Shown one piece after another: positions 8,326-28,030 of a stretch of 64,000 nucleotides of DNA (the first letter of the stretch is position 1; every line of letters begins with the position of its first letter). The position numbers and the translations under genes were made by a program. Origin of the DNA: an uncultured Bacilli bacterium (GTDB lineage Bacteria > Bacillota_I > Bacilli_A > RF39 > UBA660); NCBI GenBank assembly GCA_963931185.1, contig OZ006981.1, positions 295,910 to 359,909 on the forward strand, read 5' to 3'. The notes below the pieces were generated by a model. That model searched no databases. It was given only the letters and a program-made list of their open reading frames with translations, and had not been told where the DNA came from.

Positions 8326-10353
8326 TTATCCATATAATTCAAAGAATTTATTAGCTATTAATCTAGTTACTCTAATATTACCATAACTTCTATTATCACT
8401 ATCTGAACTGACTATATTGGGAAATGTTACTGCCATAGACATTTTAGGATTTTCAAATGGATAATAACCTACAAAAGAATTTGTAATGGTAGGTGTATCT
8501 ATTATTCCATCATCATTTGTATCAATGAATGATTCTGAAGTCCCAGTTTTCCCCGCAGGAGATGGTACTCCTTTCATATAATTTTTTCCAAGTCCTGTAG
8601 TCATAACCTCTCTAAAACCTAACTGAACTCTTTCAATATATTCTTTTTTAGTAGTAACTTTATTAAGAACTATACTATCTTGTCTATATAAAAGTGTTCC
8701 TAAATTACTACCATTGTCACTTTCATAAACTTCTTTTAACAAATGAGGTTTATATCGTATACCACCAGTTGCTATTGTAGAAATATATTCAGATAATTGC
8801 ATAGTAGTATAAGTATCATATTGTCCAATTACATAATTTAAAAGTAAATCTGGCTCACTACTTTTTCCAACATTACCAATTCCATCAATAGGTAGATCTA
8901 TTTCTGTCTTAACACCCAAACCGAACTCATTAAATGTCTTACGATATTTTTCAAAAGCATTTTCAGTATTTATAAATTTTCCATTATAAGTATATTCATA
9001 TCCCGCCACTTTCATTGCTGTTTTAAACTGATAAACATTAGAAGATTGACTCAACGCTGTTATATCGTTTATTCTTCCTAATGTTGTCCACGAACATTTT
9101 TCTGGTTTGGAATATAATTTAATACATTCATCAACTTGATATTCACCTATCTCTATAGCATTTTCATTATATCCAACTAATATTGAAGCTCCTTTAACTA
9201 CACTACCTGGCGTTACTGGATTAGTAATTACTCCTGGCGTTACATCATAAATATAATATTCGCCATTTTTTTTAATAACTTGTTTACCAACCATTGCTAG
9301 AATTTCACCAGTATTAGGTTCTTTAATAACAACATATATATGATTAAACAAATCTGTCCCTGGATCTTTCTTTATTTTGATAATTTCTTCTTCTAATATT
9401 TTTTCAATTTCTTGTTGTAGATTTATATCAATAGTTAAAACAATATCATTTCCTCTTTTCCCAGAATCAATCATAACAATTTCATTATTGTCAATCGTAT
9501 AAGTTCCTTTTTTTCCTTTTAATATATCCTCATATTGTTTTTCGATATAACTAACACCAACTATATCATTCAATGAATAGCCTTTAGATAAATAATAATC
9601 TTTTTCTTCCTTAGATATTTTTGATATATTCCCTAAAATTGATCTAAAAGTATCACCATATGGATATACTCTTTCCCAATCATATTTTATATAAAAGCCA
9701 GGAATTTTAGTTAAATTATCGGAAATTTTTGCAAGTTCTGAATCTGTTAGATTTTCTTTTTTTATTATTTTTTCCTCATATGAATAACCATTATTCATTA
9801 AATAATAGATATAAGCAGCCTTTTTCTCTATATCATCATATTTGCTTAAAGTTTCTCCAGTTATTCTACTTAATTTTAAATAATAAATATCTTCATCATC
9901 TAGTTTTCTGTTTTCATATTTTTGCCATTCCTCTTTGCTTATTAATGTTTTAGAAAAAGTAGCATTTTCAACTAACCAATAATCTTTTAACATTCGTTCA
10001 GTGAGTTTTGAATAATCAAGTTCAATAATTTCACTAATTAAATTAGCATATTTAATCTCACTTATAGAATCTACTTTATTTGGCTTTAAATAATAAAGAA
10101 CTGGTATGCTTATATTATCTACAATAATATTATAATTCCTATCATATATTCTCCCACGTGGGACAGTAGAAAATGAATAAATATTGTTCGTTTTTTCAAT
10201 CAATAATTTACTATAATAAGAATTTTTTATTATTGTAATATTAAATATTTGAAATAATATTATTATAAAAGAAATATATATTATATATTTTAAAATATTT
10301 AATCTTTTATTAATATTTTTTTTTAAATTATTTTTTATTTTTATTTTTTTCAT
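8326..10353 (-). CDS. Class B penicillin-binding protein (PBP2/FtsI-like transpeptidase)
   Basis: N-terminal TM segment; transpeptidase motifs SVVK (SxxK), SSN, KTGT. Confidence 0.85.
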   Translation of the reverse strand: MKKIKIKNNLKKNINKRLNILKYIIYISFIIILFQIFNITIIKNSYYSKLLIEKTNNIYSFSTVPRGRIYDRNYNIIVDNISIPVLYYLKPNKVDSISEIKYANLISEIIELDYSKLTERMLKDYWLVENATFSKTLISKEEWQKYENRKLDDEDIYYLKLSRITGETLSKYDDIEKKAAYIYYLMNNGYSYEEKIIKKENLTDSELAKISDNLTKIPGFYIKYDWERVYPYGDTFRSILGNISKISKEEKDYYLSKGYSLNDIVGVSYIEKQYEDILKGKKGTYTIDNNEIVMIDSGKRGNDIVLTIDINLQQEIEKILEEEIIKIKKDPGTDLFNHIYVVIKEPNTGEILAMVGKQVIKKNGEYYIYDVTPGVITNPVTPGSVVKGASILVGYNENAIEIGEYQVDECIKLYSKPEKCSWTTLGRINDITALSQSSNVYQFKTAMKVAGYEYTYNGKFINTENAFEKYRKTFNEFGLGVKTEIDLPIDGIGNVGKSSEPDLLLNYVIGQYDTYTTMQLSEYISTIATGGIRYKPHLLKEVYESDNGSNLGTLLYRQDSIVLNKVTTKKEYIERVQLGFREVMTTGLGKNYMKGVPSPAGKTGTSESFIDTNDDGIIDTPTITNSFVGYYPFENPKMSMAVTFPNIVSSDSDNRSYGNIRVTRLIANKFFELYG

Positions 10354-10418
10354 GCTATCACATTAATATTTTGTGTAATATTTAAAAAGTTATTTAATAT
10401 ATTTTAATAGGTGATAAT

Positions 10419-10664
10419 TTGGAATTTGTTATTAAAGAATTTATTAGTCGATTAACAGAAGATGATATAAATAATTTTGCTTTAAAAGAAGGAATAACAC
10501 TAGAAAATGATGAACTCAAAACTATATACATGTATATAAAAAATTATTGGCAAATTTTTTATAAAGAAGATGCAAGTTATTTGCTCAATGAATTAAAAGA
10601 AAAACTCAAACCAAATACATATACTAAAATAGTTGAACTATTAAACAAATATAAAAAGAAATAG
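10419..10664 (+). CDS. Small hypothetical protein (TTG start)
   Basis: 81-aa ORF with an AGGTGA RBS 3-12 nt upstream of the TTG. Confidence 0.35.
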   Translation: MEFVIKEFISRLTEDDINNFALKEGITLENDELKTIYMYIKNYWQIFYKEDASYLLNELKEKLKPNTYTKIVELLNKYKKK

Positions 10665-15765: not shown

Positions 15766-15856
15766 TGGCGGAGACAGAGGGATTTGAACCCTCGCACCAG
15801 TTTCCCAGTCTACACCCTTAGCAGGGGCGCCTCTTCGGCCTCTTGAGTATGTCTCC
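15766..15856 (-). tRNA. tRNA-Ser(GCU)
   Basis: 91-nt cloverleaf with long variable arm, anticodon loop CTGCTAA, encoded CCA. Acceptor stem GGAGACA/TGTCTCC. Confidence 0.85.
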
Positions 15857-16211: not shown

Positions 16212-16260
16212 TGGTGGGGCGTTAGGGATTCGAACCCTAGACCCACTGATTAAGAGTCAG
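16212..16260 (-). other. 3' half of the disrupted host tRNA-Lys(CUU) gene, including the 13-bp att core (16248-16260)
   Basis: Minus strand reads CTGACTCTTAATCAGTGGGTCTAGGGTTCGAATCCCTAACGCCCCACCA. This is a T-arm, acceptor 3' strand and CCA that pair perfectly with the 5' half at 26172-26198. Confidence 0.8.
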
Positions 16261-16404
16261 AGGGCTTACTTCCCTTTTTCTAAGGCTCCACCATATTGTC
16301 AAAAAACTTAAGCAACTTATTTTTCCCTTATTTTACGGGGCTTTGCTTGGTTTGTTGTATTTACTATAGCATTTTTTAGTTGGCTCTACAATAGCCTTTT
16401 TTTT

Positions 16405-16432
16405 GTTGTGGGTGCCGAAAAGGTGCCGAAAT
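16405..16432. promoter_or_regulatory. Candidate integrase arm-type sites, left end (GGTGCCGAA x2)
   Basis: GTGGGTGCCGAAAAGGTGCCGAAATG direct repeats between the att core and the int stop. The same 9-mer family recurs at the right end. Confidence 0.45.
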
Positions 16433-16446
16433 GTTAAAATCGTGTC

Positions 16447-17562
16447 TTAATTGATACTCAATGCACCATTTAACATGTTAGCAACCTCGGTTCTATTTGC
16501 TTGGAAAATGTGAGAGTAAATGCCTGTTGTTACTGCCATAGAAGAATGACCCATTCTTTCTTGTATCAATTTTGTGTGAACACCTAGTGCAATTTGTAAA
16601 CTTGCTGAACTATGTCTCAATGAGTGAAAGTTCATTTTTGGTAGTCCATATTTAACTGCTACTTTTTGAAATATTTTGCCACAAGTGGTTGGATACATAG
16701 GTTTCCCGTCTTTTGCTAGGAACAATTTATTGTTTGCTTTCCAATTATTTGATAAAGATAACTCCTCTTTGTAGGCTTTTAATATCTCAATAGTTGTATC
16801 GGTTAATACCATTTTTCTTGTTGATGTATCGTTCTTTGTTGCCTTTTCTACAATTTCGCCTTTAATAACATCTAGCGATTTATTGATAGTTAATACTTTG
16901 GTATCAAAATCAATATCGTTCCAAGTTAATGCCAAAATCTCACTTCTTCTTGCTCCCGAGTCTAGTGCTAGAACAATAAGTGCTTGATATTTTAGACACT
17001 CATTTTTTAACCCATTTAATAATGTATGTATTTGCTCTAGGTCGTAACACTCGGCAAGATGTTTTTCTTTTTTGGGTCTAGGTATATCAATATTAGGGTT
17101 AGTTTCAAGTAGTTTCCATTTAACGGCTTGTGTAAACATTAAATTGATTAAGTTGTAATAATGTAATAAAGTGTTATTTGTTACAACTTTTTTTCTTGTG
17201 CCATTTTTTAATTTTTTATATAGTTCCATTAAAGTAAAAGTTTCAATATCTTTTAGTTGCCAATTACCAATATAGCCATTGATTTTTTCTAACATTGACT
17301 TGTATCCGTCCAAAGTTTTTACACCGACATTTTCTTCACAATAGTTACGAATAAAGAAGTTCCCAAAATCTTCAAAGGTCATATTTTTGCTATCAACAAC
17401 AAAGCCACCTTTTGCATATTGTTGCTTGATTTCAAACTCTCTTGTTTCGGCTTGTTTTTTCGTTCCCTCAAAAATCTCCGTTTTTCTCTTTCTTTTTCCG
17501 TCTATATTGTAGCCAATTTCTGCTATTATTTTATATTTATTTTTTGATAGTTGTTTTATCAT
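16447..17562 (-). CDS. int: Site-specific tyrosine recombinase (phage/ICE-type integrase)
   Basis: N-terminal arm-binding-like domain (KNKYKIIAEIGYNIDGKRKRK). C-terminal catalytic HSLRHSSAS...HSSMAVTTGIYSHI (R, HxxR, Y). GGAGG RBS before MIKQLSK. Confidence 0.85.
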   Translation of the reverse strand: MIKQLSKNKYKIIAEIGYNIDGKRKRKTEIFEGTKKQAETREFEIKQQYAKGGFVVDSKNMTFEDFGNFFIRNYCEENVGVKTLDGYKSMLEKINGYIGNWQLKDIETFTLMELYKKLKNGTRKKVVTNNTLLHYYNLINLMFTQAVKWKLLETNPNIDIPRPKKEKHLAECYDLEQIHTLLNGLKNECLKYQALIVLALDSGARRSEILALTWNDIDFDTKVLTINKSLDVIKGEIVEKATKNDTSTRKMVLTDTTIEILKAYKEELSLSNNWKANNKLFLAKDGKPMYPTTCGKIFQKVAVKYGLPKMNFHSLRHSSASLQIALGVHTKLIQERMGHSSMAVTTGIYSHIFQANRTEVANMLNGALSIN

Positions 17563-17635
17563 TTTTCGTTCCTCCAATCATTTGATAAAACAATCTCTAT
17601 CTACTTATAATTATACCATATTTTCCTTGTTTTTC

Positions 17636-17833
17636 CTAGTAAAATAGAGATGTTTTGCTTTCTTTTTCTTGTAATTTTTCTACCCATGTATTGATACTTT
17701 TTAAATCAAACATAATACGATTTCCTATTCTAAAGTGTGGTATTTTTTTCTCTCTTACCAACTTTCTAATTTCCGATATAGATATTTTTAAATAGTTTGA
17801 TAAATCTTTTAAATTACATATTTCTTTTGTCAT
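17636..17833 (-). CDS. xis: Excisionase/Xis-family small HTH DNA-binding protein
   Basis: 65 aa; ISISEIRKLVREKKIPHFRIGNRIMF matches the excisionase-family HTH; GGAGG RBS; directly upstream of int. Confidence 0.7.
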   Translation of the reverse strand: MTKEICNLKDLSNYLKISISEIRKLVREKKIPHFRIGNRIMFDLKSINTWVEKLQEKESKTSLFY

Positions 17834-17939
17834 TTGTTAAACCTCCAATTTTTTGATTTTCCGTTCGAACAATTAGAGTTTACCTTTAACAAAAGCCTCA
17901 AATCTCGTACAAGTTTTTTGATTAAGTGTTCCATTTTGA

Positions 17940-18230
17940 AAACTAAAAAAAGCCCGTAATATAAGGGCTAGAGAGATTTACTTGTCCGATTTTTCGAGTA
18001 ATAAGTTTTAATTTTGTTATGATATTTTTTGATAAGTTGTGATACTTTGTGATAGTTTATGATACTTTTTTCGCCCAACACCCTATATATATAAATAAGG
18101 AAAAAATACGGGGCTAGCAAAATCAAAAAAAATGAAAATATTTTATACTTATTTTTGACCTTTTAACTCGAAAAATCGGTATTAAAAAACAAGAAAAAGC
18201 CCGTAAGTAAAGGGTTTTCATACTTTCAAA
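17940..18230. promoter_or_regulatory. Highly structured ORF-free control region (hairpins, inverted repeats, iterons)
   Basis: AAGCCCGTAA(T/G)ATAAGGG hairpins at 17947-17972 and 18198-18222. Inverted repeat GTCCGATTTTTCGAGT (17984-17999) / ACTCGAAAAATCGG (18164-18177). GTGATACTTT-type iterons at 18019-18066. Confidence 0.5.
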
Positions 18231-18375
18231 AAAGAACACTTTTACTTGTTTTATGATACTTTCTTTTAGGTATTTTCTTGGTAAGATGTAATCACAAACG
18301 AAGCAAGTCGACTTAAAAGTTTGTAAAAAAAATGTTAGAATAGTGGTAACCCCACAAATGAAAGGAATGATTAAA

Positions 18376-18861
18376 ATGACTAACAAAGAACCAAGAACTG
18401 TTTTTATAGGAAGTGTTGAAGAACTTAAGGAGGTTATAAAAGAAGCCCGTGAATTAGAAAAAAATAAAAATGCAATGAAAGAGAAAGTAAAAGTATCTAA
18501 TAAAGACTTAAAAAGATTTGAAGAAGAATATAAGATTTGGATAGAGAAAATCAATAATGCTATGAAAAAACATAACTCTGATAAGTTTGATAGCGAAAAT
18601 AGTGATTTAGAAGATATATTACTAATCGACTATGAGTTATATCTAGGCAAAAAAATGGAAGATATTTTCAATGAGTATGAATATTTATATGATAGCATAG
18701 ACGATATGATTTATATTATGAAAAATACAGGTTTTATAATTGCACCATTTATAATAAGTGATAGAACTATGTTATTAGATACTATTGAAAGTTTTGAAAA
18801 TGGCGATTATGATGTTGAAGATGGTATTAAAAGAGAATATTTTAATTTAAATAACTATTAA
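18376..18861 (+). CDS. Island cargo protein A, unknown function (acidic C-terminus)
   Basis: 161 aa from MTNKEP with an AAAGGA RBS; followed by a hairpin terminator at 18868-18898. Confidence 0.55.
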   Translation: MTNKEPRTVFIGSVEELKEVIKEARELEKNKNAMKEKVKVSNKDLKRFEEEYKIWIEKINNAMKKHNSDKFDSENSDLEDILLIDYELYLGKKMEDIFNEYEYLYDSIDDMIYIMKNTGFIIAPFIISDRTMLLDTIESFENGDYDVEDGIKREYFNLNNY

Positions 18862-18867
18862 AATAAA

Positions 18868-18898
18868 GGTTATCTTATATGAGATAGCCTTTTTTCGT
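18868..18898 (+). terminator. Hairpin terminator after cargo gene A
   Basis: GGTTATCT-tatatg-AGATAGCC stem followed by TTTTTT. Confidence 0.5.
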
Positions 18899-18906
18899 GG
18901 TATAAT
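18897..18906 (+). promoter_or_regulatory. Extended -10 promoter element (TGnTATAAT) for cargo genes B-C
   Basis: GTGGTATAAT, the same 10-mer as at 21248-21257; lies 10-20 nt upstream of the B gene RBS. Confidence 0.5.
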
Positions 18907-18927
18907 TAAGGCATGGAGGCTTTAATT

Positions 18928-20076
18928 ATGGGAAAAAGACACAATACCTTATCGGACGATATTTTTCGCAATAGCAAGTATATAAACACTTTAGAACAAG
19001 CACTTGAAATTGACGACTTTAGAAAAGAATACAAAGAACAATATGACATTATGCTTGAAGTATATAAAATGCTTATCACAATAAACAATATAATATTCGC
19101 TGATAGTAATAAATCTATCAATGATAAAATATACGAAATGGAACTTGAGTTTGAAAAAATTGTTGGGGAACAAGTTGACGAAGAAAGCGACGAAAAAAGA
19201 AAACATAAATATAGTGTAAGAACTTTAAAAGGCTTGATAGATAGTAATACGAGATACTTATTCAATAAGTTTGTTGAGTGGTATGATTATTTAATGAACT
19301 TTAACAAATTAGATATGGTTAAGCAAGAGGTCGAAGAAGAAATGAAAAGACTTGAAAGCATTGACTTTGACAAAGTTGTTAAAGGTGGTCTACTTTATGA
19401 GAAAAATAAAAATAGCAACTATAAAATCTATACAAGCAAACTAGATTATCTATTCCTTAACAATAAAGATGTATGGAAAGAATACAAGCAAGACTTTTAC
19501 GACACATACGGAATCCAACTAACGGATCGAGAGAAAAACGATATTTACTTTGTATTTAAGTTAATTGCTTATGCAAATAATGGTATTGTAAAATTACTAT
19601 TTCAAGACGAAATAAAAGACTTTGAATTAACCGAAAAAGACAATGCCGAAGATTATTTCAAAGCCTATCTAACATCTTTAAATATAGATATAAAAGATAA
19701 TAGAAAGTTTATGAGTAAAGCCGACATCTTTTTAAATGAGTTGCTGATAACTAACAATGTTATTATAGAACAATTAGAAAATGACACTAAAAACGAGCAT
19801 ATCATTGATATATCACATATTGAGGTTGAGCCTTTTGTTGCAAATTATGACTTATACTTTTTCTATGTAAATATGGAAAAGATAACTACGGGCTTATATG
19901 AGTTTACTATCAAAACTGATGTTATAGTTAAGATTATCAATGACTTAAAAGAAATCTATAATCTTATGTATGACAATGTGCCTACTATCACGGACGAAAA
20001 ACAAGTGCAAGAGGCTTTTTCTAAAATACAAAATATAATTGATAGAAATAAGAAAATGTTTGAGAGGTTGAGTTAA
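18928..20076 (+). CDS. Island cargo protein B, unknown function
   Basis: 382 aa from MGKRHNT with a GGAGG RBS; no nucleotide-binding or nuclease motif recognised; stop overlaps the gene C start (TAATG). Confidence 0.6.
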   Translation: MGKRHNTLSDDIFRNSKYINTLEQALEIDDFRKEYKEQYDIMLEVYKMLITINNIIFADSNKSINDKIYEMELEFEKIVGEQVDEESDEKRKHKYSVRTLKGLIDSNTRYLFNKFVEWYDYLMNFNKLDMVKQEVEEEMKRLESIDFDKVVKGGLLYEKNKNSNYKIYTSKLDYLFLNNKDVWKEYKQDFYDTYGIQLTDREKNDIYFVFKLIAYANNGIVKLLFQDEIKDFELTEKDNAEDYFKAYLTSLNIDIKDNRKFMSKADIFLNELLITNNVIIEQLENDTKNEHIIDISHIEVEPFVANYDLYFFYVNMEKITTGLYEFTIKTDVIVKIINDLKEIYNLMYDNVPTITDEKQVQEAFSKIQNIIDRNKKMFERLS

Positions 20077-20795
20077 TGAAATCAATAAATGTTGTTAAGA
20101 TGTTAGAGGAAGAAGAAAAAACAAAGGCAAAAGAACGAAAAAGCACGGATGCTGAAACACTATTAAAAGATATAATATGGAATTGTATTGATAACTTTAT
20201 AATGCCCTATGTGAAATCAAAAATTGAAATAACGGAACACGAGCAAGTCGTATATGAAGATAACCTTTTTAATTTATTAGTTAAGCATAATGACTTTACG
20301 GAAGAAGATAGTATCGCCTTTGACGAGGAAGAAAGAAACTTTTTAAATACAAGCAATAGGAAAGTTAAAGTTGATATGGGCAAACGATATGCTGAAACAA
20401 TTATAAGAACACATACACTTGACGAAAAAGTGGAAGAATATTATATCAAGTATACAAAGCCTATGCTTAAGGAATTACAAAAACAAAATGTTATTATCTA
20501 TGATACTGAAGCATTAGATAATAAAACAAAAAGTGCTACCACTAAAATAGATAAATTAGTAAAAAAGATTATTACTGATAAAGCCAAAGAAAGCAAGATG
20601 TATTCGCTTTTTAAAAAAATATTCGGTAATGAGTTTATAGAAAAAAATGATGTTATCTTTAGTGATAACAAAGAACAAAAGGAAAAGTTTTGTAATTGTA
20701 TCAAGACTTATATAGAAAATAACTACGATAATATTGACTATAAAGCCATTGATAACATTGACTTTGCTGATATGAACGAGTTTAAACTCGATTAA
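20076..20795 (+). CDS. Island cargo protein C, unknown function
   Basis: 239 aa; translationally coupled to B; followed by a strong terminator. Confidence 0.6.
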   Translation: MKSINVVKMLEEEEKTKAKERKSTDAETLLKDIIWNCIDNFIMPYVKSKIEITEHEQVVYEDNLFNLLVKHNDFTEEDSIAFDEEERNFLNTSNRKVKVDMGKRYAETIIRTHTLDEKVEEYYIKYTKPMLKELQKQNVIIYDTEALDNKTKSATTKIDKLVKKIITDKAKESKMYSLFKKIFGNEFIEKNDVIFSDNKEQKEKFCNCIKTYIENNYDNIDYKAIDNIDFADMNEFKLD

Positions 20796-20797
20796 AG

Positions 20798-20822
20798 AGG
20801 TTTTAAGCCTCTTTTTTGATGT
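20798..20822 (+). terminator. Rho-independent terminator after cargo gene C
   Basis: AGAGG-ttttaag-CCTCT hairpin followed by TTTTTT. Confidence 0.6.
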
Positions 20823-20924
20823 TTTAAACTTTGGTATATATAAATAACACTCCTAACATAAATCATTTAAATAGTAGGCAAAAAATGGCTATTTTCGAGC
20901 ATTTAAAACATGTGATACACACCT

Positions 20925-21176
20925 TTACTTGTTTTCGTCTATGGGAGCAAATAACTCTCTTATATCTATACCTAAAATCTTTGCTAAATGGTAAAGACTA
21001 CCTACTGAAATAGTTTGAAATACTTTGTCGCTTTCGAGGTTGCCAATAAAACTTAAAGCATAGTTGCTTGCCTCGGCTAATCGTTCTTGGGTAAAGCCTT
21101 TGTCTTTTCGTAATTTTTTCAAGTTTTGACCTATCACATAGTAGATATAATTTTCATCGTTTTTGTTGTCATTCAT
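20925..21176 (-). CDS. XRE-family (Cro/CI-type) HTH transcriptional regulator
   Basis: LKKLRKDKGFTQERLAEASNYALSFIGNLESDK HTH; divergent from the 21279 operon. Confidence 0.75.
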   Translation of the reverse strand: MNDNKNDENYIYYVIGQNLKKLRKDKGFTQERLAEASNYALSFIGNLESDKVFQTISVGSLYHLAKILGIDIRELFAPIDENK

Positions 21177-21247
21177 AGCCTCACCACCTATATATAAATT
21201 ATCTCAAAAATAAAGTTTTAACTTTATCTATGGTTCGTGGATAAAAT

Positions 21248-21257
21248 GTGGTATAAT
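21248..21257 (+). promoter_or_regulatory. Extended -10 promoter (TGnTATAAT) of the XRE-divergent operon
   Basis: TGTGGTATAAT sits 22 nt upstream of the gene D ATG. Confidence 0.55.
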
Positions 21258-21278
21258 GTTAGTGAAAGGAGTTTGTTT

Positions 21279-21737
21279 ATGCTAACTAAAGATATTTTTG
21301 TAAAAGGTTTAACTACTGTTACCAAAGAGGATTTGAAAACTTATTTAGTCTTTGTTCAACAGTATTTTGATGTAATAGATGAATATTGTCTAAAAGTCCA
21401 AGAGACTCAAAGTGCTATCTTAAATCAAAAGCCAGATACGAATGACCGAGAGGCTGTAGAAGTTTTAATTATGGATAAGTTTAAAAGTGATGAAATGAGC
21501 AGATTATTAAAGGACTATGATAGAACAGAAAGATTAACAAAAGAGTTAGAATTATTGAAAAGAAATTTTAGAACATCAGAAAGAGATATTTTATGGAATT
21601 TAGAATCTTTTGACCGAAAAAGTAATTATAGACTTTATGGTTGTCTAAAACAAGTTGAACGTGATTATGAAGAACTTGAGACATTATTAACAGAAGTCGA
21701 TAAATTCACTACTGAGAGTCACAACTATCACTTTTAA
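21279..21737 (+). CDS. Island protein D, unknown function
   Basis: 152 aa from MLTKDIF with leader GAAAGGAGTTTGTTTATG. Confidence 0.5.
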   Translation: MLTKDIFVKGLTTVTKEDLKTYLVFVQQYFDVIDEYCLKVQETQSAILNQKPDTNDREAVEVLIMDKFKSDEMSRLLKDYDRTERLTKELELLKRNFRTSERDILWNLESFDRKSNYRLYGCLKQVERDYEELETLLTEVDKFTTESHNYHF

Positions 21738-21753
21738 CTAAGGGAGTTTGTTT

Positions 21754-22257
21754 ATGAAAAGAAGAAGTTATTTTAAATTGACTGGTAAAGAAAAACAAAT
21801 GGTAAATAATATTATGTTAAAACAAGAGGGTTATTTTAGTATGTTTAATATATCTATTATGACAATATCAGTATTGTGTATATTTATATCTATTTCGCAA
21901 AATAATATAATATTCGTATTGATAATATCTCTTATTATGTTTTTGGTGTTAAGATTTAAAATGTTTTATTATTATTTAAAGCATACTGAAATAAATTTTG
22001 ACATCAATAGTAAAGAAAACAATGAGATGTCAAAATATACTGATAATCAAACAAAGTTTATTTTAGGAATATTTGGGGTAGTAATGGTAATCGGTGCTAT
22101 GGGGTTGCTTGGTGTTTTTGATAACAATGACACTGGTGGAAGTTCCGACAATGGGTATAAAACTAATTGCTATCCAAGAAGTGATGGAAAAATATGTTGC
22201 ACATCTTGTAAAAAGACGAGTTATGGCGATATAGGTTGTGGAACAACCTGTAATTAA
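21754..22257 (+). CDS. Two-TM membrane protein with Cys-rich C-terminal tail
   Basis: Leader AGGGAGTTTGTTTATG nearly identical to that of gene D; two hydrophobic helices; C-terminus CYPRSDGKICCTSCKKTSYGDIGCGTTCN carries 7 Cys. Confidence 0.5.
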   Translation: MKRRSYFKLTGKEKQMVNNIMLKQEGYFSMFNISIMTISVLCIFISISQNNIIFVLIISLIMFLVLRFKMFYYYLKHTEINFDINSKENNEMSKYTDNQTKFILGIFGVVMVIGAMGLLGVFDNNDTGGSSDNGYKTNCYPRSDGKICCTSCKKTSYGDIGCGTTCN

Positions 22258-22275
22258 AAAGGAGGGAATTAAAAA

Positions 22276-22572
22276 ATGGCTTTAATTAAGTGTAGTGAGT
22301 GTGGCAAAGAGATAAGCGACAAATCTAAAAAATGTATTTATTGTGGCAACCCTATTACAATAATTGCAATAAATAGACATTGTGAATTGTGTGGTGGAGA
22401 AATAGACTTAAATAATTGTGAATGTTTAAGATGTGGTTTTACTGATATATCTCTTTTGAATAAGAAAACAAGGGACGAAAGTCTTAAAAGGTTTAGGGAA
22501 AAAATGGAAGAAATAGCAACAGGAAGTTCTAAAAGTTTTAGAAAGAGAGAAAAAGAAAATGAAAAAAATTAG
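22276..22572 (+). CDS. Double zinc-ribbon protein
   Basis: CSECGK...CIYCG and CELCGG...CLRCG (two CxxC pairs in tandem); AAGGAGGG RBS. Confidence 0.55.
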   Translation: MALIKCSECGKEISDKSKKCIYCGNPITIIAINRHCELCGGEIDLNNCECLRCGFTDISLLNKKTRDESLKRFREKMEEIATGSSKSFRKREKENEKN

Positions 22573-22930
22573 TTTAGTATTATTATGTGGGGTTATTTTA
22601 TTAGGTGTATGTGGTTGTGGTAGTAAAGAAGAAAAATTAAATGAAATGGAAAATATCATTTATAATTCAATGATTAAAACAAGTAAAACAGCCGATAGCC
22701 CATCTGATTTAAGGTTAATTGAGGTATTTAAAAAAGATGGTAATTTTTATATAAATCTTAATAAAGGAGATGGAACATATTGCTATTATGTGAACACATC
22801 AAGAGAAGAATTATCTTATGAATATGGCACTTGTCATATAGCAGAATTGCAAAACGAAACTTATGATGATGTTTCTATTTCAAAAGTAAATAATAAATAT
22901 AAAAAATATGTTGAGGATATGGGATTATGA
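22559..22930 (+). CDS. Lipoprotein, unknown function
   Basis: Signal peptide with lipobox LLGVCGC. Confidence 0.55.
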   Translation: MKKISLVLLCGVILLGVCGCGSKEEKLNEMENIIYNSMIKTSKTADSPSDLRLIEVFKKDGNFYINLNKGDGTYCYYVNTSREELSYEYGTCHIAELQNETYDDVSISKVNNKYKKYVEDMGL

Positions 22931-23751
22931 AAAAAAAGAAAATAATTGTTGGGATAGCATTGTTAGTAATAATTTGTGTAATATTATGTATAGTGTTTAT
23001 GTTCAATAAAAATAATGGTTTATTAGAGTTTGACAAAGTTATATCAAGTGGGACAAAAACGGTAGTTATTTTTGAAAATAATCAAGCCCAAGAAGAAAAG
23101 TTGAAAAATATTTTAGAAGAAAATAATGTCAATTTTATTTCTATTGATGTATCCAAATTAAAAGATAATGATAAAAATAAATTGAAAACGACATTAGACT
23201 TGGAAAACTTAACTACTTATTATGGAGCAATTATTGAAAATAATGATGTTTTACGAAAAATATACTTAAAAGATATTGAAACAAATGATAATGAAAAAAT
23301 TATGCAAATGCTTGCTTATTATGGGGTATTAGAAAACTCAAAAGAATATTTAAACGATTACAACTATAAAATGGGTGTTGAGGCACTTAATAATGGTCTA
23401 ATTTATAGTGCTAATAGTTACTTGAAAAGTGTCGATAAAGACTATAAAGATGTCAATGAATTATTAAAAGATAAAAGATTTTTTCTATTAAATAAATATC
23501 ATTATGATTACCCAGATAATATTAGAAAAATGACTTTTCAATATTTACCAAATGATAAAATATATCACGATAGCTTTGTTGGAGAAGAATACAATCAAAA
23601 AGCATATGTTAAAAATGATATTATTTATATATGCACTCGTAGTTGTGATAGTGAATATGCTAACACAAGAGAATTTTTACATATAGATTATGTTAATGAA
23701 ACAGAGTTAAAATTTAAGGAGTGGGATTTTGTTTTAAAAAAAGTTGACTAA
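22927..23751 (+). CDS. N-terminally membrane-anchored protein, unknown function
   Basis: MKKKKIIVGIALLVIICVILCIVF anchor plus a ~240-aa extracytoplasmic domain; ATGA overlap with the lipoprotein gene. Confidence 0.55.
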   Translation: MKKKKIIVGIALLVIICVILCIVFMFNKNNGLLEFDKVISSGTKTVVIFENNQAQEEKLKNILEENNVNFISIDVSKLKDNDKNKLKTTLDLENLTTYYGAIIENNDVLRKIYLKDIETNDNEKIMQMLAYYGVLENSKEYLNDYNYKMGVEALNNGLIYSANSYLKSVDKDYKDVNELLKDKRFFLLNKYHYDYPDNIRKMTFQYLPNDKIYHDSFVGEEYNQKAYVKNDIIYICTRSCDSEYANTREFLHIDYVNETELKFKEWDFVLKKVD

Positions 23752-23837
23752 CTTTATATAGGACGAGGCGACCGATTTTTGAAAAGTCAAGCCATAAATT
23801 ACTAAAGCCCACCCCGTGTATGTGTCTATATAAAAAT

Positions 23838-23868
23838 CAAAGTTGTGCGATGCACAACTTTTTTATAT
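23838..23868 (+). terminator. Rho-independent terminator ending the 21279-23751 operon
   Basis: GTTGTGC-gat-GCACAAC hairpin followed by TTTTTTAT. Confidence 0.6.
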
Positions 23869-24018
23869 TGTCAATAGGTTTGGTGCTGGAATATATGGGC
23901 TTGGTGCAACTTTAAGCACTACCATAGCAATTATACTATGCTTGCACTAACTCTTGTTAAATGCCTTATATTGCCTTAATATGAGGTGTTTTTTTATGCC
24001 TCGATCCGAGTGCTTGCT

Positions 24019-24110
24019 ACCCTATAAATTGATATAAGTATCTTTTGTATATTTTTGGTTGTTCTTGTTTCCTCTTAAGTAAGGGTAAGTGTTAGTGGCT
24101 ACCCTATAAG
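24019..24110. repeat. 12-bp direct repeat GCTACCCTATAA (x2, 80 bp apart) in an ORF-free, GC-richer region
   Basis: Copies at 24019-24030 and 24099-24110, upstream of the second Xis-like gene. Confidence 0.5.
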
Positions 24111-24129
24111 ACACGGGAGGTATGTATCA

Positions 24130-24294
24130 ATGAATTATTACACTACAAAGGAAATAAGCGAGATTTTAGGACTATCAATTAAGACTATTCAAAAGTTAAT
24201 TAGAACAAGACAACTAAAAGCATTTAAAATTGGTAATCGTTTCATAGTCGAAGAAAGCACACTAAAAGACTACATCAATGCAAGACAAGTATAG
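24130..24294 (+). CDS. Second excisionase/MerR-like small HTH protein
   Basis: 54 aa, MNYYTTKEISEILGLSIKTIQKLIRTRQLKAFKIGNRFIVEE; GGGAGG RBS; below the ORF-track size cutoff. Confidence 0.55.
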   Translation: MNYYTTKEISEILGLSIKTIQKLIRTRQLKAFKIGNRFIVEESTLKDYINARQV

Positions 24295-24372
24295 ACTTAA
24301 CAAGCACTAGATAACATTTTTATAATTGTATCAATGAAAGGAAAAAACTATTTTAATGGGGGGGCAAGATAA

Positions 24373-24771
24373 ATGGCAAAAGTTGATATGGAGCAAGCCT
24401 CGTGGCAAGATGTATTGCAAGCAATAAAAGAAAGCAATATCAATTATGGCAAAGACTATGACATTTATACTTATTATCACTATGACAATGGCAATATAGT
24501 TGGGGTTGTTTATGGTTGGTTTTATGATAGGTGCTTATACATTGACATTGTTTTTGTTAGTGCCGAGTATCGAGGCAAAGGAATTGCTACATCAATGCTT
24601 AAGAGAGTAATACAAGAAATAAAAAGCAAAGACATTGACAATATTATTGTTGAGTTGGTGCAATATAAAGGAAAATATCTACTTGCAAATATTCTTGTCC
24701 GTCTTGGTTTTTGTTTGCATAGTCTATATTACATCTTAAGGCAAAGAGTTATCTATTATATGTCGTTGTAA
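24373..24771 (+). CDS. GNAT family N-acetyltransferase
   Basis: VSAEYRGKGIATSMLKRVIQE acetyl-CoA-binding motif (R/Q-x-x-G-x-G/A). Confidence 0.65.
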   Translation: MAKVDMEQASWQDVLQAIKESNINYGKDYDIYTYYHYDNGNIVGVVYGWFYDRCLYIDIVFVSAEYRGKGIATSMLKRVIQEIKSKDIDNIIVELVQYKGKYLLANILVRLGFCLHSLYYILRQRVIYYMSL

Positions 24772-24931
24772 TTAGATAATAGATAGATAAACACATAATC
24801 TTTGTTAGTTTGCCGTCTAATTAAAAGAAAAAACGGCTTTTCAATATAAGCCATTTTTGTTCAATTTTACGAATAATTATATGCCACCATTGACTTATGC
24901 CCTTTTTGGCACATATTTAGGAGGTTTGAAA

Positions 24932-25450
24932 ATGAAAAAACAAGCAATAGGTTTTATCGTTGACGAACACGGAGTTGTTAATAAAGAGATATACATAGGC
25001 GACCGAGTTCGTATTATACGAGAAAGCCAAAGACAACATTTACAAGATTTTAAAAAGACAAATAAAAGCAAAACATATTGTAAGGTATTTTGTAAGGCAA
25101 GCGATATATTGGCAAGTCTTAATTTAACAGCAAGTGAATATAAACTAATTTTTGCTATGCTCGGTCATATCGGTTTTGCCGAGTTTAGTGGCTACCTTAT
25201 AAAAGTTCAATGCAATATGTTTTGTGGTTACTTAAACGGCGAGGAATTAAAAAGTATTGCTAATATGCAAGATAGGACATTTTGGCGAGCCATTGATAGT
25301 TTAGTAAAAAAAGAGATTATCGCCATTGAGAAAGTTGGACGAGAAAATCATTTTTTGGTTAATCCGTTTATATTTATGAAAAATGACGAAATAACTCGTA
25401 CCTTATTCAATTTGTTTTGTGATACAAAGTTCAATTATTTAAACGAATAA
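24932..25450 (+). CDS. Putative winged-helix replication/regulatory protein (RepL-like?)
   Basis: AGGAGG RBS 7 nt before MKKQAIGF; 172 aa. Family assignment is uncertain. Confidence 0.4.
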   Translation: MKKQAIGFIVDEHGVVNKEIYIGDRVRIIRESQRQHLQDFKKTNKSKTYCKVFCKASDILASLNLTASEYKLIFAMLGHIGFAEFSGYLIKVQCNMFCGYLNGEELKSIANMQDRTFWRAIDSLVKKEIIAIEKVGRENHFLVNPFIFMKNDEITRTLFNLFCDTKFNYLNE

Positions 25451-25494
25451 TTGCTCTCACTTAATTAGTAGGCCATTACAAAAAGAGATAAACT

Positions 25495-25752
25495 TTACTT
25501 GTCTATCTCTTTTTTGCTACTTAAGTAACTACGAATTATTGCTACTTGCACGGGGTTTTGTTCTTGTATTTCTTTTGCGAACATATACTTTAATTTTTCA
25601 AAATGTTTTTCTAAAAGTTTTCTATCTTTTTTTGATAGTTCGCACTCGTCTAGTATTTGACGAGTTGTTGCCATTTCAAGAACAATGTTTTTAAACTCCT
25701 TTGTAATAGTAAATTGTAAGTCTTTTAAGTTTTCAATATCTTTTTCGTCCAT
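25495..25752 (-). CDS. Small hypothetical protein
   Basis: 85-aa charged helical protein. Confidence 0.4.
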   Translation of the reverse strand: MDEKDIENLKDLQFTITKEFKNIVLEMATTRQILDECELSKKDRKLLEKHFEKLKYMFAKEIQEQNPVQVAIIRSYLSSKKEIDK

Positions 25753-25837
25753 TTCTTCTTAACTCCTATCTTATATTTTTTATTTGCTCCTTATCAATGT
25801 TTTATCAAAAAAATTGGTTAATAGATAGAGATTTTAG

Positions 25838-25872
25838 AAAAGGTGCCGAACGGGTGCCGTAAAAGGTGCCGT
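25838..25872. promoter_or_regulatory. Candidate integrase arm-type sites, right end (GGTGCCGAA/GGTGCCGTA/GGTGCCGTC)
   Basis: AAAAGGTGCCGAACGGGTGCCGTAAAAGGTGCCGTC: three copies of the 9-mer family seen at 16408-16432, about 290 bp from the right att core. Confidence 0.45.
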
Positions 25873-25877
25873 CTTAT

Positions 25878-25913
25878 GATAATTTGTGATACTTTATGAT
25901 ACTTTTGTAATTT
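25878..25913. repeat. TGATA(A/C)TTT iterons (x3)
   Basis: TTATGATAATTTGTGATACTTTATGATACTTTTG; the same iteron family as 18019-18066 and 18248-18258. Confidence 0.5.
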
Positions 25914-25995
25914 TCTAAAAAAGTCATTTTTCACTTAAAAATACATTTTTTTATATCAAAATTTGATACTATTTTTTCAAAATAATTTTAAAATC

Positions 25996-26044
25996 AAAAA
26001 ATAAAAAAGTCTAGCAAACCCTTATAATTGCTAGGCTTTTTAAT
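25996..26044 (-). terminator. Terminator downstream of the element-borne tRNA-Lys
   Basis: TAGCAA...TTGCTA hairpin followed by a T-run on the minus strand. Confidence 0.45.
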
Positions 26045-26052
26045 ATTCAACA

Positions 26053-26128
26053 TGGTGGATTGTTAGGGATTCGAACCCTAGACCCATCGATTAAGAGTCG
26101 ATTGCTCTACCAACTGAGCTAACAATCC
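26053..26128 (-). tRNA. tRNA-Lys(CUU), element-borne intact copy
   Basis: GGATTGTTAGCTCAGTTGGTAGAGCAATCGACTCTTAATCGATGGGTCTAGGGTTCGAATCCCTAACAATCCACCA. Perfect acceptor stem GGATTGT/ACAATCC, anticodon loop CTCTTAA, CCA encoded. Confidence 0.85.
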
Positions 26129-26158
26129 ATTTTTAAGGCTCCTTAACTTGGAACAACC

Positions 26159-26198
26159 GATTAAGAGTCAGTTGCTCTACCAACTGAGCTAACGCCCC
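26159..26198 (-). other. 5' half of the disrupted host tRNA-Lys(CUU) gene, including the att core copy (26159-26171)
   Basis: Minus strand reads GGGGCGTTAGCTCAGTTGGTAGAGCAACTGACTCTTAATC, then diverges into non-tRNA sequence (GGTTGTTCC...). Confidence 0.8.
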
Positions 26199-26272
26199 AA
26201 AATAAGCTACTAATAAATTATAACATATTTTAAAAAAAAGAAAAGACTTTATTTAAAAAATAATATAAAATC

Positions 26273-26572
26273 TTACAAATTACTATTTATCAATGTTTCT
26301 ATGTCCTTATCTGTATTGATATAATTATTACAAACAGTTTCTAAATATGATATATATTTCTCATTACTAGCAATAATTTCTTCAAATTTATTATACAAAT
26401 TTTTCAAATCATTAATTACTACATCACTTGTTTGAGATAACCAAAAATTTGGTATTTGATTAGCTTTAGTCTTAACATTATCAAACAATGTAGCAATATT
26501 TAAATTTTCTTTTTTTAATTCTGCTATTTTCTCCTTTAATCCATTGAAATCTATTTTTATATTACTTGTCAT
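26273..26572 (-). CDS. Small helical protein, WXG100/Lap-like (uncertain)
   Basis: 99 aa, predicted all-helical; sits next to a WXG100-like gene. Confidence 0.4.
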   Translation of the reverse strand: MTSNIKIDFNGLKEKIAELKKENLNIATLFDNVKTKANQIPNFWLSQTSDVVINDLKNLYNKFEEIIASNEKYISYLETVCNNYINTDKDIETLINSNL

Positions 26573-26873
26573 TATTACTTCTCCATTCTAAATTACTAGA
26601 CAAATCTTTATCAATATTTCCATGTTTAATCGCCATTTCTTTTAATAATTCTCCTTTCTCTATCATAAAAAGTTCTACTTCATTTATGCTCACTAAAAAT
26701 TCATTGTAATTTTCATAAAACATTTCAGAATCAATTCCATTCCATAAAGCTTTAATATCTTCGTTTGTTTTTTTCATATTATCAACAATATTTTTTAAGT
26801 TATTACCTTGCAAATTAAAAAAAGCTCCAATTTTGTATAATTCTTTACAATTTATTTTAAAAATATTTGCCAC
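26562..26873 (-). CDS. WXG100-family (ESAT-6-like) protein
   Basis: 103 aa with a central W-N-G (ALWNGIDSE) at about residue 43 between two predicted helices. Confidence 0.5.
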   Translation of the reverse strand: MANIFKINCKELYKIGAFFNLQGNNLKNIVDNMKKTNEDIKALWNGIDSEMFYENYNEFLVSINEVELFMIEKGELLKEMAIKHGNIDKDLSSNLEWRSNNDK

Positions 26874-28030
26874 TATTCTATTTCCTCCCTATAAAAAATA
26901 TTAGATAAAATTTTTTGATTATTCTCCATATCTAAATTACAGAACATATTAAAAAATTCTTTTGAATTTATAATTGGTAATAAATAGTTTCTTGAATCTC
27001 CATTAAGTATCTGTTCAGAACTAGTATTGTTGTTTTCTGCTACTACATCAATCATAGTTTTCAAAGCAGAAACACTATTAGAATCCAAATTATAAATATT
27101 TTTGCCTTCATATATATTTAATATTTTTTCTCTAAACCTAAATACATTATCACTTGAAATTGAATCTATATAATTTAAAGCATTATTAAAATAATTAAAG
27201 TTATTATAAAGAAGTTGTTGATTTTCTGCATTACTTATCAAAGAATTATAATCAGTATTATTAATATTTGCTATTTTTGTAAAATAAGAATTCAAAAACT
27301 CTATATTTTCTGAATTTATTAAATTTATATTACCAGAAGAATATAGTTTAACCAATATTTGTTTCAAAGCAGAAATATCCATATTAAGTAAACTTTTTTT
27401 CAATTCATCAGTTATATTAATAGAATTTAGTAATTCTTTTTTTACATTCTCTATTTTGATATCATCATTAACTATATCAAAAAAAGTTGAATTTGAAGCA
27501 GATAGAAACTTTGATAAGACAACCGATATTCCTATATAGTCTATCAAATTAAAATCATTAACGCCCATTTGATTAGAATTTATACTAGCATTATAAAAAT
27601 TATTATTAACTGTAGTATTGGCTTTTCTATACGAATTGTTAACTGAATTAGTCGTATAATCATTATTTATAACTTTATTATTAGAATATGACTCATCTAC
27701 CATAATCTGACTATTCTTACTATTATTAATACTATCGTTAATATTATTAATAGTCAAAATTATTGAATTAATAGCTGTAGACAAAGATACACAATAATTT
27801 TCTAGAATACCATATGAAGAAAAATATCTTAAAGCTGAACTGGTAATTCGTTCTGAAGTGAGATTGAGATTATTAACTCTTGACTTCCAATTAGAACATA
27901 AATCTGTTATAGAAGCAGAATTTAAAAATATTTCCTTTTCAGGTAATGAATTTAAATTCATTAAGTCTTCGCCGCTGTATTCAATATTCTCAGTATAATT
28001 CTGAATAGAATTTTCGTTCATAAAAACCAC
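26873..28030 (-). CDS. Asn/Ser-rich low-complexity protein, possible secreted substrate
   Basis: 385 aa with no enzymatic motif; first gene of the three-gene minus-strand unit that includes the WXG100-like genes. Confidence 0.4.
   Translation of the reverse strand: MVFMNENSIQNYTENIEYSGEDLMNLNSLPEKEIFLNSASITDLCSNWKSRVNNLNLTSERITSSALRYFSSYGILENYCVSLSTAINSIILTINNINDSINNSKNSQIMVDESYSNNKVINNDYTTNSVNNSYRKANTTVNNNFYNASINSNQMGVNDFNLIDYIGISVVLSKFLSASNSTFFDIVNDDIKIENVKKELLNSINITDELKKSLLNMDISALKQILVKLYSSGNINLINSENIEFLNSYFTKIANINNTDYNSLISNAENQQLLYNNFNYFNNALNYIDSISSDNVFRFREKILNIYEGKNIYNLDSNSVSALKTMIDVVAENNNTSSEQILNGDSRNYLLPIINSKEFFNMFCNLDMENNQKILSNIFYREEIE

Follow-up and report, generated by a model that had tools for sequence, protein, structure and literature searches.

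An integrative element of uncultured gut Bacilli splits a host tRNA-Lys(CUU) gene and carries an intact tRNA gene with the same anticodon

What becomes of a host tRNA gene when a mobile element recombines into its anticodon loop and does not rebuild it? The question is raised by a 64,000-nucleotide stretch of DNA from an uncultured Bacilli bacterium (GenBank assembly GCA_963931185.1, contig OZ006981.1, positions 295,910 to 359,909; hereafter the window, whose numbering is used throughout), in which an earlier note had described an integrated element of about 9.9 kb that splits a tRNA-Lys(CUU) gene. The gene is indeed split, but the view that it is simply split and left unreplaced does not hold, as a complete replacement tRNA lies 30 bp inside the junction. 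We consider it quite probable that the insertion is an active, site-specific integrative element, which splits the host tRNA-Lys(CUU) gene and supplies a complete tRNA gene of its own with the same anticodon.

A direct repeat of 13 bp, GATTAAGAGTCAG, bounds the 9,911-bp insert (16248-16260 and 26159-26171), and no third copy is found in the window even when one mismatch is tolerated (chance expectation 0.08). Beside the integrase-proximal copy of this core (16248-16260, reading CTGACTCTTAATC on the tRNA strand) lies the displaced 3′ fragment of the host gene, 36 nt through the CCA end (16212-16247, minus strand), and beside the tRNA-proximal copy (26159-26171) lies its 5′ fragment of 27 nt (26172-26198, minus strand), with a gap of 9.9 kb between the two halves. 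When minus-strand 26198-26172, one copy of the core and 16247-16212 are joined in silico, ARAGORN folds the product into a 76-nt tRNA-Lys(CTT) with all stems paired. The positions given in the earlier note, including that of the repeat at the break, were thus exact to the base, and the halves do fold into the perfect 76-nt tRNA-Lys that it foresaw. The core CTGACTCTTAATC consists of the 7-nt anticodon loop (CTCTTAA) with four and two stem bases at its sides, and the overlap used in recombination is presumably the 7 bp of the loop itself. The GC skew, negative over the window, turns positive between about 18 and 26 kb, which is what a foreign insert with oppositely directed genes should produce.

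The identity between the attachment sites of the element (attP) and of the chromosome (attB) stops 2 bp beyond the anticodon loop, and the gene is regenerated at neither junction: because the identity ends after 13 bp, the host tRNA-Lys(CUU) is not rebuilt. The sequence past the core is unrelated to the tRNA 3′ half, so that attP lacks the core-contiguous tRNA fragment typical of classical islands. The class A islands of Islander (Williams 2002; PMC4383910) have the same crossover at the anticodon loop, and their two boundaries are likewise marked by the integrase and by a 3′ fragment. In those islands, however, attP brings an in-register 3′ part of the tRNA and the gene is regenerated, whereas here the identity covers 13 bp only, an extra orphan 5′ fragment is present, and the intact tRNA is wholly element-derived. 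The position of the crossover had been regarded in the earlier note as less common among tRNA targets; this does not stand, given that Islander counts 2083 anticodon-centred sites among 3919 islands (PMC4383910). The unusual point is the 13-bp identity that stops at the anticodon loop and leaves the gene unregenerated.

The predicted empty site was searched for by exact-protein lookup of the flanking gene for a 99-amino-acid (aa) WXG100-like protein, which led to 23 contigs that were read. Three of these, from the same species (L002, L003 and L004), show the WXG100-like gene, an uninterrupted tRNA-Lys, a tRNA-Ser and a gene for a 279-aa protein, and no element. Their tRNA-Lys has exactly the predicted sequence, with the 3′ half contiguous with the 5′ half, and the flanks are 99.5-99.9% identical to those of the window and abut the tRNA at the predicted bases. 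The comparison with related genomes proposed earlier therefore came out as anticipated, and both occupied and empty alleles recur among the 23 contigs. Two further contigs differ: L006 ends inside the 13-bp core (at about 10402-10410), as expected if coexisting occupied and empty alleles break the assembly graph, and L005 diverges from the window directly after the WXG100-like gene (10315-10463), with no tRNA-Lys next to it, and represents another structural variant.

The replacement gene is an intact tRNA-Lys(CUU) with an encoded CCA (26053-26128, minus strand; ARAGORN, and 73.6 bits with the Rfam tRNA model). Its distance from the right-hand core is 30 bp, and it is oriented like the split gene; the spacer between core and tRNA (26129-26158, minus strand) contains no promoter-like site by consensus scan. 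The acceptor stem is GGATTGT/ACAATCC in the element tRNA and GGGGCGT/ACGCCCC in the host tRNA, and the anticodon stems are ATCGA/TCGAT and ACTGA/TCAGT, respectively. All 10 differences between the two form five compensated pair swaps, of which the acceptor stem has three and the anticodon stem two, and the remainder is identical, a pattern that is the signature of a functional tRNA. The gene is followed by an intrinsic terminator (25991-26036, minus strand), with a CUAGCAA/UUGCUAG stem and then a U run, which folds at -12.6 kcal/mol (z-score -2.2); the strict terminator scan did not call it because its loop has 10 nt. The element tRNA is missing from the empty sites. The idea that the changes in its anticodon stem shield it from the element's own integrase was rejected, as 6 of the 12 related loci described below show no change in the bases that correspond to the core.

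In the native window, ARAGORN calls three tRNA genes: a tRNA-Ser(GCT) at 15766-15856, the element tRNA-Lys(CTT) of 76 nt at 26053-26128, and a 78-nt "tRNA-Lys" at 16212-16289. The last is a weak hybrid on the minus strand, called by both ARAGORN and Rfam, in which the host 3′ half is joined to element sequence. It obtains 32.2 bits with Rfam (gathering score 29), compared with 25.6 for the hybrid at the other junction and 73.6 for the element tRNA; the Rfam alignment shows non-standard pairs in its acceptor and anticodon stems and a D arm that is mostly unmatched. We rejected this hybrid as a working tRNA on the grounds of its two mismatched acceptor pairs and its D arm. In addition, ARAGORN is silent on the hybrid in the 12 related loci of the same layout, and in the other hosts of the window's element its acceptor would, by inspection, carry three mismatches. 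An automatic annotation would display two tRNA-Lys genes flanking the island, masking the split.

The junction expected in attP was found as well. An exact lookup of the 371-aa integrase in ENA assemblies retrieved contig L078, which contains int, the P arm, the same core, the 30-bp spacer and the element tRNA in this order, as predicted. Its attP is identical to that predicted from the complete-element contig L076, and differs at 6 of 557 positions from that predicted from the window. Exact-match searches for the junction gave none in IMG/VR and none in JGI metagenome contigs. Because the two junctions share just 13 bp, the assembler could not have created the join in L078, which is either a circle or a tandem copy.

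The arms of this attP contain repeats placed as integrase sites would be. The P arm, between the int stop codon and the core (16261-16446, minus strand), holds two CGGCACC repeats (16411-16417 and 16422-16428), and in the P′ arm (25842-25916, minus strand) there are again CGGCACC repeats, three in number (25842-25871), after which come three TATCAYAA repeats (25874-25902). Of the six CGGCACC sites that the window contains, five are at the element ends, where 0.2 are expected by chance, all on the minus strand and with a spacing of 11-12 bp, and GGCAC(C) repeats are found at corresponding places in all of the related attP sites. These are putative arm-type sites of the integrase. Since the two arrays bracket the core, the element tRNA and its terminator, both tRNA and terminator form part of attP, flanked by the core on one side and the P′ arm sites on the other. 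The features of a heterobivalent (lambda-like) recombinase are present: putative arm-type repeats on both sides of the core (two in P, three in P′) and a candidate directionality factor. Five overlapping TTRTGATA repeats with a 10-bp period lie upstream of xis-int (18017-18069, plus strand), and the motif occurs again at 25874-25916; these may be operator, Xis or regulator binding sites. L017 has a similar GTGTTATAAAGTATCACAAAG sequence in its P′ arm, and L016 and L023-L025 have a shorter piece.

A 9-mer, TAAGGCTCC (GGAGCCTTA on the tRNA strand), is found in both attP arms, about 29 bp from the core (16281-16289 and 26134-26142); its P-arm copy resembles the first 10 bases of tRNA-Lys (GGAGCCTTAG versus GGGGCGTTAG), and it is not kept in more distant relatives. 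The notion of attP as a degenerate tRNA is unsupported, as the GGAGCCTTA motifs of the two arms repeat each other directly and are not complementary.

Is the arrangement peculiar to this locus? From an alignment of integrase homologues we fetched 65 genome loci, nearly all from metagenome-assembled genomes (MAGs) of uncultured gut Bacilli and Clostridia; a script joined short repeats shared by the regions after int and upstream, and ARAGORN was used to test for a tRNA over the join. The layout of the window was recovered in 12 related loci, with tRNA-Lys(CUU) as target in L009 and L011, tRNA-Ser(GCU) in L020 and L026, and tRNA-Arg(CCU) in the remainder (L016, L017, L023, L024, L025, L031, L035 and L056). 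In all of them a core of 9-17 bp is centred on the 7-nt anticodon loop (CTCTTAA in Lys, CTCCTAA in Arg and CTGCTAA in Ser, which differ by one or two bases), the host 3′ fragment follows int at a distance of 163-233 bp, and an intact tRNA with the same anticodon lies 27-76 bp downstream of the orphan host 5′ fragment, in the orientation of the split gene. With the window included, the anticodons of the carried and the split tRNA match in 13 of 13 loci, while the identity between the two tRNAs ranges from 46/77 to 71/77 in the Arg loci and from 70/76 to 84/92 in the Lys and Ser loci. Most related loci with enough sequence also have a hairpin and a T run after the element tRNA (e.g. L009, L016, L020 and L023-L026).

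The spacers of 27-76 bp were also inspected in the attP of L009, L011, L016, L017, L020, L023-L025, L031 and L056. Most relatives have a short hairpin right before the element tRNA, e.g. GCCTTATAATATAAGGC, TTCCTTGCAAAGCAAGGAA and GGACATATAAAAATGTCC; this hairpin might bind a protein or act in RNA processing as a signal.

In a neighbour-joining tree the integrases group by target tRNA. Classical restorers occur in the same branches as the replacers, namely L012 (Thr CGU) and L044 (Ser GCU), with 21-33 bp of identity; L059 (Arg UCU), which is more distant and matches in part, is also a restorer, and together the identity of the three spans 19-33 bp into the 3′ part of the tRNA. In Clostridia of a more remote clade, int and an intact tRNA-Met or tRNA-Lys are convergent. 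The element tRNA of L011 (4485-4560 of that locus) is identical at 76 of 76 positions to the chromosomal tRNA-Lys(CUU) of the window's host, which suggests that tRNA cassettes are exchanged between elements and the chromosomes of neighbouring species or members of the same community.

The element itself is found in more than one host. The xis-int-P arm segment is 99.1-99.4% identical at the nucleotide level in L074 and L075, beside unrelated host genes, and the G+C content of the host flanks is 24.7% in L074, 30.3% in L075 and 25.9% in the window. The interrupted tRNA-Lys(CUU) also differs: its acceptor stem is GTCTCCT/AGGGGAC in L076, with a matching 3′ half in L074, the T arm is different in L075 and L080, and the anticodon stem in L081. 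Near-identical copies of the element therefore reside in at least three different host tRNA-Lys variants (four were counted). The same integrase beside unrelated flanks and in differing tRNA-Lys genes shows that the element is active and has recently entered several hosts.

Four other explanations of the locus were weighed against this reading. The one that survives best, although we regard it as unlikely, is that the element tRNA serves mainly in codon supply or anti-defence, for example in resisting anticodon nucleases aimed at tRNA-Lys, a possibility raised by Guerrero-Bustamante and Hatfull (PMC10865867). AAG is a minority Lys codon (17.7% of Lys codons), a related Bacilli MAG locus (L028) has a tRNA-Lys(UUU), and the anticodon stem of the element tRNA is altered in the window and in L009, all of which would suit such a role. 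On the other hand, the carried tRNA matches the disrupted anticodon in every one of the 13 loci and across three tRNA species including Ser(GCU), its distance from the core is always 27-76 bp and its orientation that of the split gene, and half of the related loci (6 of 12) show no anticodon-stem change at all.

Far less probable is plain disruption, in which the tRNA is off while the element is resident and on again after excision, with nothing replacing it. The gene is truly split and precise excision would restore it, as this explanation demands, but an intact tRNA with the same anticodon and its terminator begin 30 bp from the junction, and this tRNA belongs to the element, for the attP contig has it and the empty sites lack it.

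Less probable still is that the intact gene at 26053-26128 is the regenerated host gene of a classical restoration, with the 5′ fragment a relic of an older event or of a tandem pair. Superficially the locus is of the Islander type, with an intact tRNA gene and a 3′ fragment at opposite ends. The empty site and the attP contig refute this: the former has a single tRNA of the GGGGCGT type, whose halves are exactly the two orphan fragments, and lacks the GGATTGT type, while in the latter the whole GGATTGT tRNA travels with the element; moreover, in the host of L076 the GGATTGT tRNA adjoins a different orphan 5′ fragment. Finally, an assembly artefact fusing two tRNA-Lys loci, conceivable in that repeated tRNA genes can break or mis-join assemblies and that L006 ends exactly in the core, is the least probable of all, as the occupied structure recurs in independent assemblies (the 1.0-Mb contig L001/L073, the complete-element contig L076, L077 and L082) and the junctions share only the 13-bp core, which is shorter than usual k-mers (contig names give k87 and k141).

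Some observations weigh against the reading of an active element that splits and replaces its target tRNA. The contig with the attP junction could derive from a tandem dimer instead of a free circle. The integrase-side hybrid does receive a marginal tRNA score from ARAGORN and Rfam in the window's host. The host tRNA promoter described below was not called by the strict two-hexamer consensus scan and was read from the sequence only, and Pfam, PHROGs, NCBIfam and PADLOC recognise no replication, transfer or packaging genes in the cargo. In addition, given the low share of AAG among Lys codons and the tRNA-Lys(UUU) in the related MAG, the replacement tRNA may be helpful or beneficial rather than essential in the window's host, where a requirement for it is only presumed. 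For the relatives that target tRNA-Ser(GCU) the replacement should be essential, because this tRNA is the sole decoder of AGY codons under standard bacterial decoding rules.

If the element does split and replace its target, the following course of events appears most plausible. The tyrosine integrase would recombine the 13-bp core with the anticodon stem-loop of the chromosomal tRNA-Lys(CUU), leaving the host gene as 5′ and 3′ fragments of 27 and 36 nt, for which the element's own tRNA-Lys(CUU) would compensate. The host tRNA promoter has an extended -10 element, TGTTATAAT (26217-26225, minus strand), about 20 nt upstream of the tRNA 5′ end; it is the same in the empty sites by direct reading, and after integration it faces the element tRNA. 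In the integrated state the element tRNA lies directly behind this promoter and the orphan 5′ fragment, and would most likely be transcribed from there, with RNase P presumably trimming the leader and releasing the tRNA. A promoter-like site in the P arm, TTGTAG-17-TGcTATAGT (16391-16363), is aimed at the core; it was recognised by eye, not by the consensus scan, and L009 conserves it. In the excised circle this site would point at the element tRNA and could drive its expression. Xis together with Int would reverse the reaction and restore the host gene precisely.

Carrying a complete tRNA gene may also explain how one element can use different hosts. For restoration, the 3′ half brought in by attP must have an acceptor strand that can pair with the host 5′ half. 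The ACAATCC strand of the element would form two mispairs and one wobble with GGGGCGT and four mispairs with GTCTCCT, as judged by inspection, so that one restoring attP could not serve the hosts observed. With the whole tRNA supplied, tRNA-Lys(CUU) genes with differing acceptor stems become usable; a complete gene would thus lift the host-pairing constraint, which fits the spread of the element across hosts.

The mechanism itself has precedents. It was named tRNA-dependent lysogeny by Guerrero-Bustamante and Hatfull (mBio 2024, PMC10865867), who showed it experimentally in mycobacteriophages; the cases in that paper are Fionnbharth (K4), Cluster L, Cain (K6), Gaia (X) and Gordonia phages of clusters CQ2/DL. 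In these a tyrosine integrase uses a core of 8-17 bp in a tRNA gene without rebuilding it, and a phage tRNA of the same isotype is needed for lysogens; arm-type sites flank the core, and restoring and non-restoring members are interleaved among related integrases (PMC10865867). The element described here likewise combines a tRNA attB, a tyrosine integrase, a short non-restoring core (13 bp) and a tRNA with the same anticodon, and its related integrases mix restorers (L012 and L044) with non-restorers. Unlike it, those examples are full temperate phages of Actinobacteria, and the features of a temperate phage are absent here. The Fionnbharth tRNA gene is at another place in the phage genome, where it overlaps with a protein gene of the other strand, and a promoter of its own has been demonstrated (PMC10865867). 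Here, by contrast, the tRNA is inside attP, 27-76 bp from the core and co-oriented, on an element of about 10 kb from uncultured low-GC gut Bacilli. The requirement for the tRNA was established by experiment in the mycobacteriophages (PMC10865867), and is presumed for the present element. We conclude that it works like tRNA-dependent lysogeny, and that what is new is the type of element, the host clade and the layout, the mechanism being already known.

Similar cases have been described outside Actinobacteria. In the SAR11 phage uv-Fonsiphage-EPL, an 11-bp core, one base off that of Pelagiphage HTVC025P (Zhao et al. 2018, as cited there), is described as splitting the host tRNA-Leu (TAG), with a tRNA-Leu encoded by the phage itself standing in for the lost function (10.1101/672428). 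The logic of split and replacement is the same as here, but these are podoviruses of Alphaproteobacteria, and the passages of the SAR11 study drawn on here describe no family-wide switching of tRNA targets (10.1101/672428). Prophage Lj965 of Lactobacillus johnsonii (Ventura et al. 2003, 2004) is cited as not rebuilding its tRNA target and carrying a cognate tRNA (PMC10865867, PMC3714127), and hence as a possible case of tRNA-dependent lysogeny outside Actinobacteria (PMC10865867); its host is a Firmicute too, but by these accounts it is a full prophage with four tRNA genes, unlike the element studied here. A study of Sinorhizobium prophages mentions that the same was reported for prophages resembling Mesorhizobium phages (PMC12429752). 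In regulated gene integrity (PMC7192596) the target is inactivated by integration and reactivated by excision; the tRNA gene of the window is also split and restorable by excision, but the element tRNA supplies the function, and no loss is expected. Phage satellites (PICI-like) combine an integrase and a repressor with modules for replication and packaging hijack, and a helper phage mobilises them; Int, Xis and an XRE regulator are present here, and no replication or packaging gene was recognised.

The element genes identified by the earlier note near the left junction are borne out by domain matches. The integrase (16447-17562, minus strand; 371 aa, or 376 aa if the TTG at 17577 is the start) contains Phage_integrase and SAM-like domains (PF00589, PF14659 and PF13102; phrog_1), and its residues R205, K243, H313, R316, H339 and Y349 (R-K-H-R-H-Y) are invariant over 44 homologues. 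The exact protein occurs in 38 blocks of the collection, and the nearest integrase in IMG/VR is 29-34% identical. Next to it, and kept beside int across the family, is the Xis or recombination directionality factor (17636-17833, minus strand; 65 aa), with a helix-turn-helix (HTH) of the excisionase type (PF12728 HTH_17; TIGR01764 'excise', 30.6 bits with a cutoff of 28.8).

Three backbone open reading frames (ORFs), of 172/161, 387 and 239 aa, follow on the plus strand (18343-20795), with no Pfam, PHROG, NCBIfam or PADLOC match; the 387-aa protein has 395 metagenomic homologues, and its AlphaFold model is unusable (predicted local distance difference test, pLDDT, 43). An HTH regulator of the XRE/Cro-C1 type (20925-21176, minus strand; PF12844, PF13443 and PF01381), kept in related elements, is divergent from the downstream cargo genes. 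The cargo on the plus strand (21237-23751) comprises ORFs of 166, 169, 98 (zinc-ribbon), 123 (lipoprotein-like) and 274 aa. The copies with an identical integrase in L076 (2354-5266) and L078 (4365-6860) have other cargo, with five zinc-ribbon or membrane proteins, and 21237-23751 is thus a variable cargo slot within a conserved backbone. The 169-aa cargo protein (21748-22257, plus strand) has hydrophobic segments, as a membrane protein would, and a Cys-rich C-terminal tail, CYPRSDGKICCTSCKKTSYGDIGCGTTCN, with no family match.

Towards the right-hand end there are a second HTH_17 protein (24130-24294), a GNAT acetyltransferase (24373-24771), a winged-helix protein of 172 aa (24932-25450) and an 85-aa ORF (25495-25752, minus strand). 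The winged-helix protein matches Rep3_N WH1 (E 0.018) and DnaD_N (E 0.06), both below threshold, which gives a sub-threshold hint of a replication initiator; its model is weak (pLDDT 53), and structure and profile searches give only generic similarity to MarR. Beyond the HTH, zinc-ribbon and GNAT domains, Pfam, PHROGs, NCBIfam and PADLOC reveal nothing in the cargo. The integrase is the sole PHROGs match, with no phage structural genes in the 9.9 kb, and megablast of the whole element against phage DNA gave just a 34-bp match, in the host tRNA 5′ fragment. The related elements are 5-11 kb long and have in common int, xis, the 387-aa protein, the XRE regulator, a zinc-ribbon protein, the second HTH_17 protein, the winged-helix protein and the 85-aa ORF.

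On the chromosome, the neighbouring tRNA-Ser(GCU) (15766-15856, minus strand) has a strong promoter of its own, TTGACT-18-TATAAT (15899-15870); it is of the type targeted by the sister elements L020, L026 and L044, and is unoccupied in the window. On the other side, adjoining the split tRNA (26273-28030, minus strand), two weakly WXG100-like small proteins of 99 and 103 aa and an Asn-rich protein of 385 aa are encoded, which may be substrates of type VII secretion.

The paper that named tRNA-dependent lysogeny closes by asking how common it is beyond actinobacteriophages (PMC10865867). The present locus and its 12 relatives extend the disrupt-and-replace strategy to uncultured low-GC gut Bacilli, to small elements in which no phage genes are recognisable and to three tRNA targets. 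They are evidence for a wide spread of the strategy in gut Firmicutes and on non-phage elements, which in principle is not surprising. The compact int-attP-tRNA cassettes could serve as self-complementing integration vectors for Firmicutes, as has been proposed for mycobacteria. By the search principle of Islander, an intact tRNA gene together with a tRNA gene fragment (PMC4383910), the locus could pass as an ordinary restored island, and such a misreading could put the boundaries off by about 70-110 bp. We propose tentatively, at somewhat less than an even chance, that the tRNA embedded in attP is a portable module, by which divergent hosts are colonised, the overlap and the carried tRNA are switched together among Lys(CUU), Arg(CCU) and Ser(GCU), and the host promoter is taken over. 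If this is true, such elements would be mis-mapped as classical restoring islands by tools that search for an intact tRNA gene and a 3′ fragment, and the strategy may be much commoner than has been recognised.

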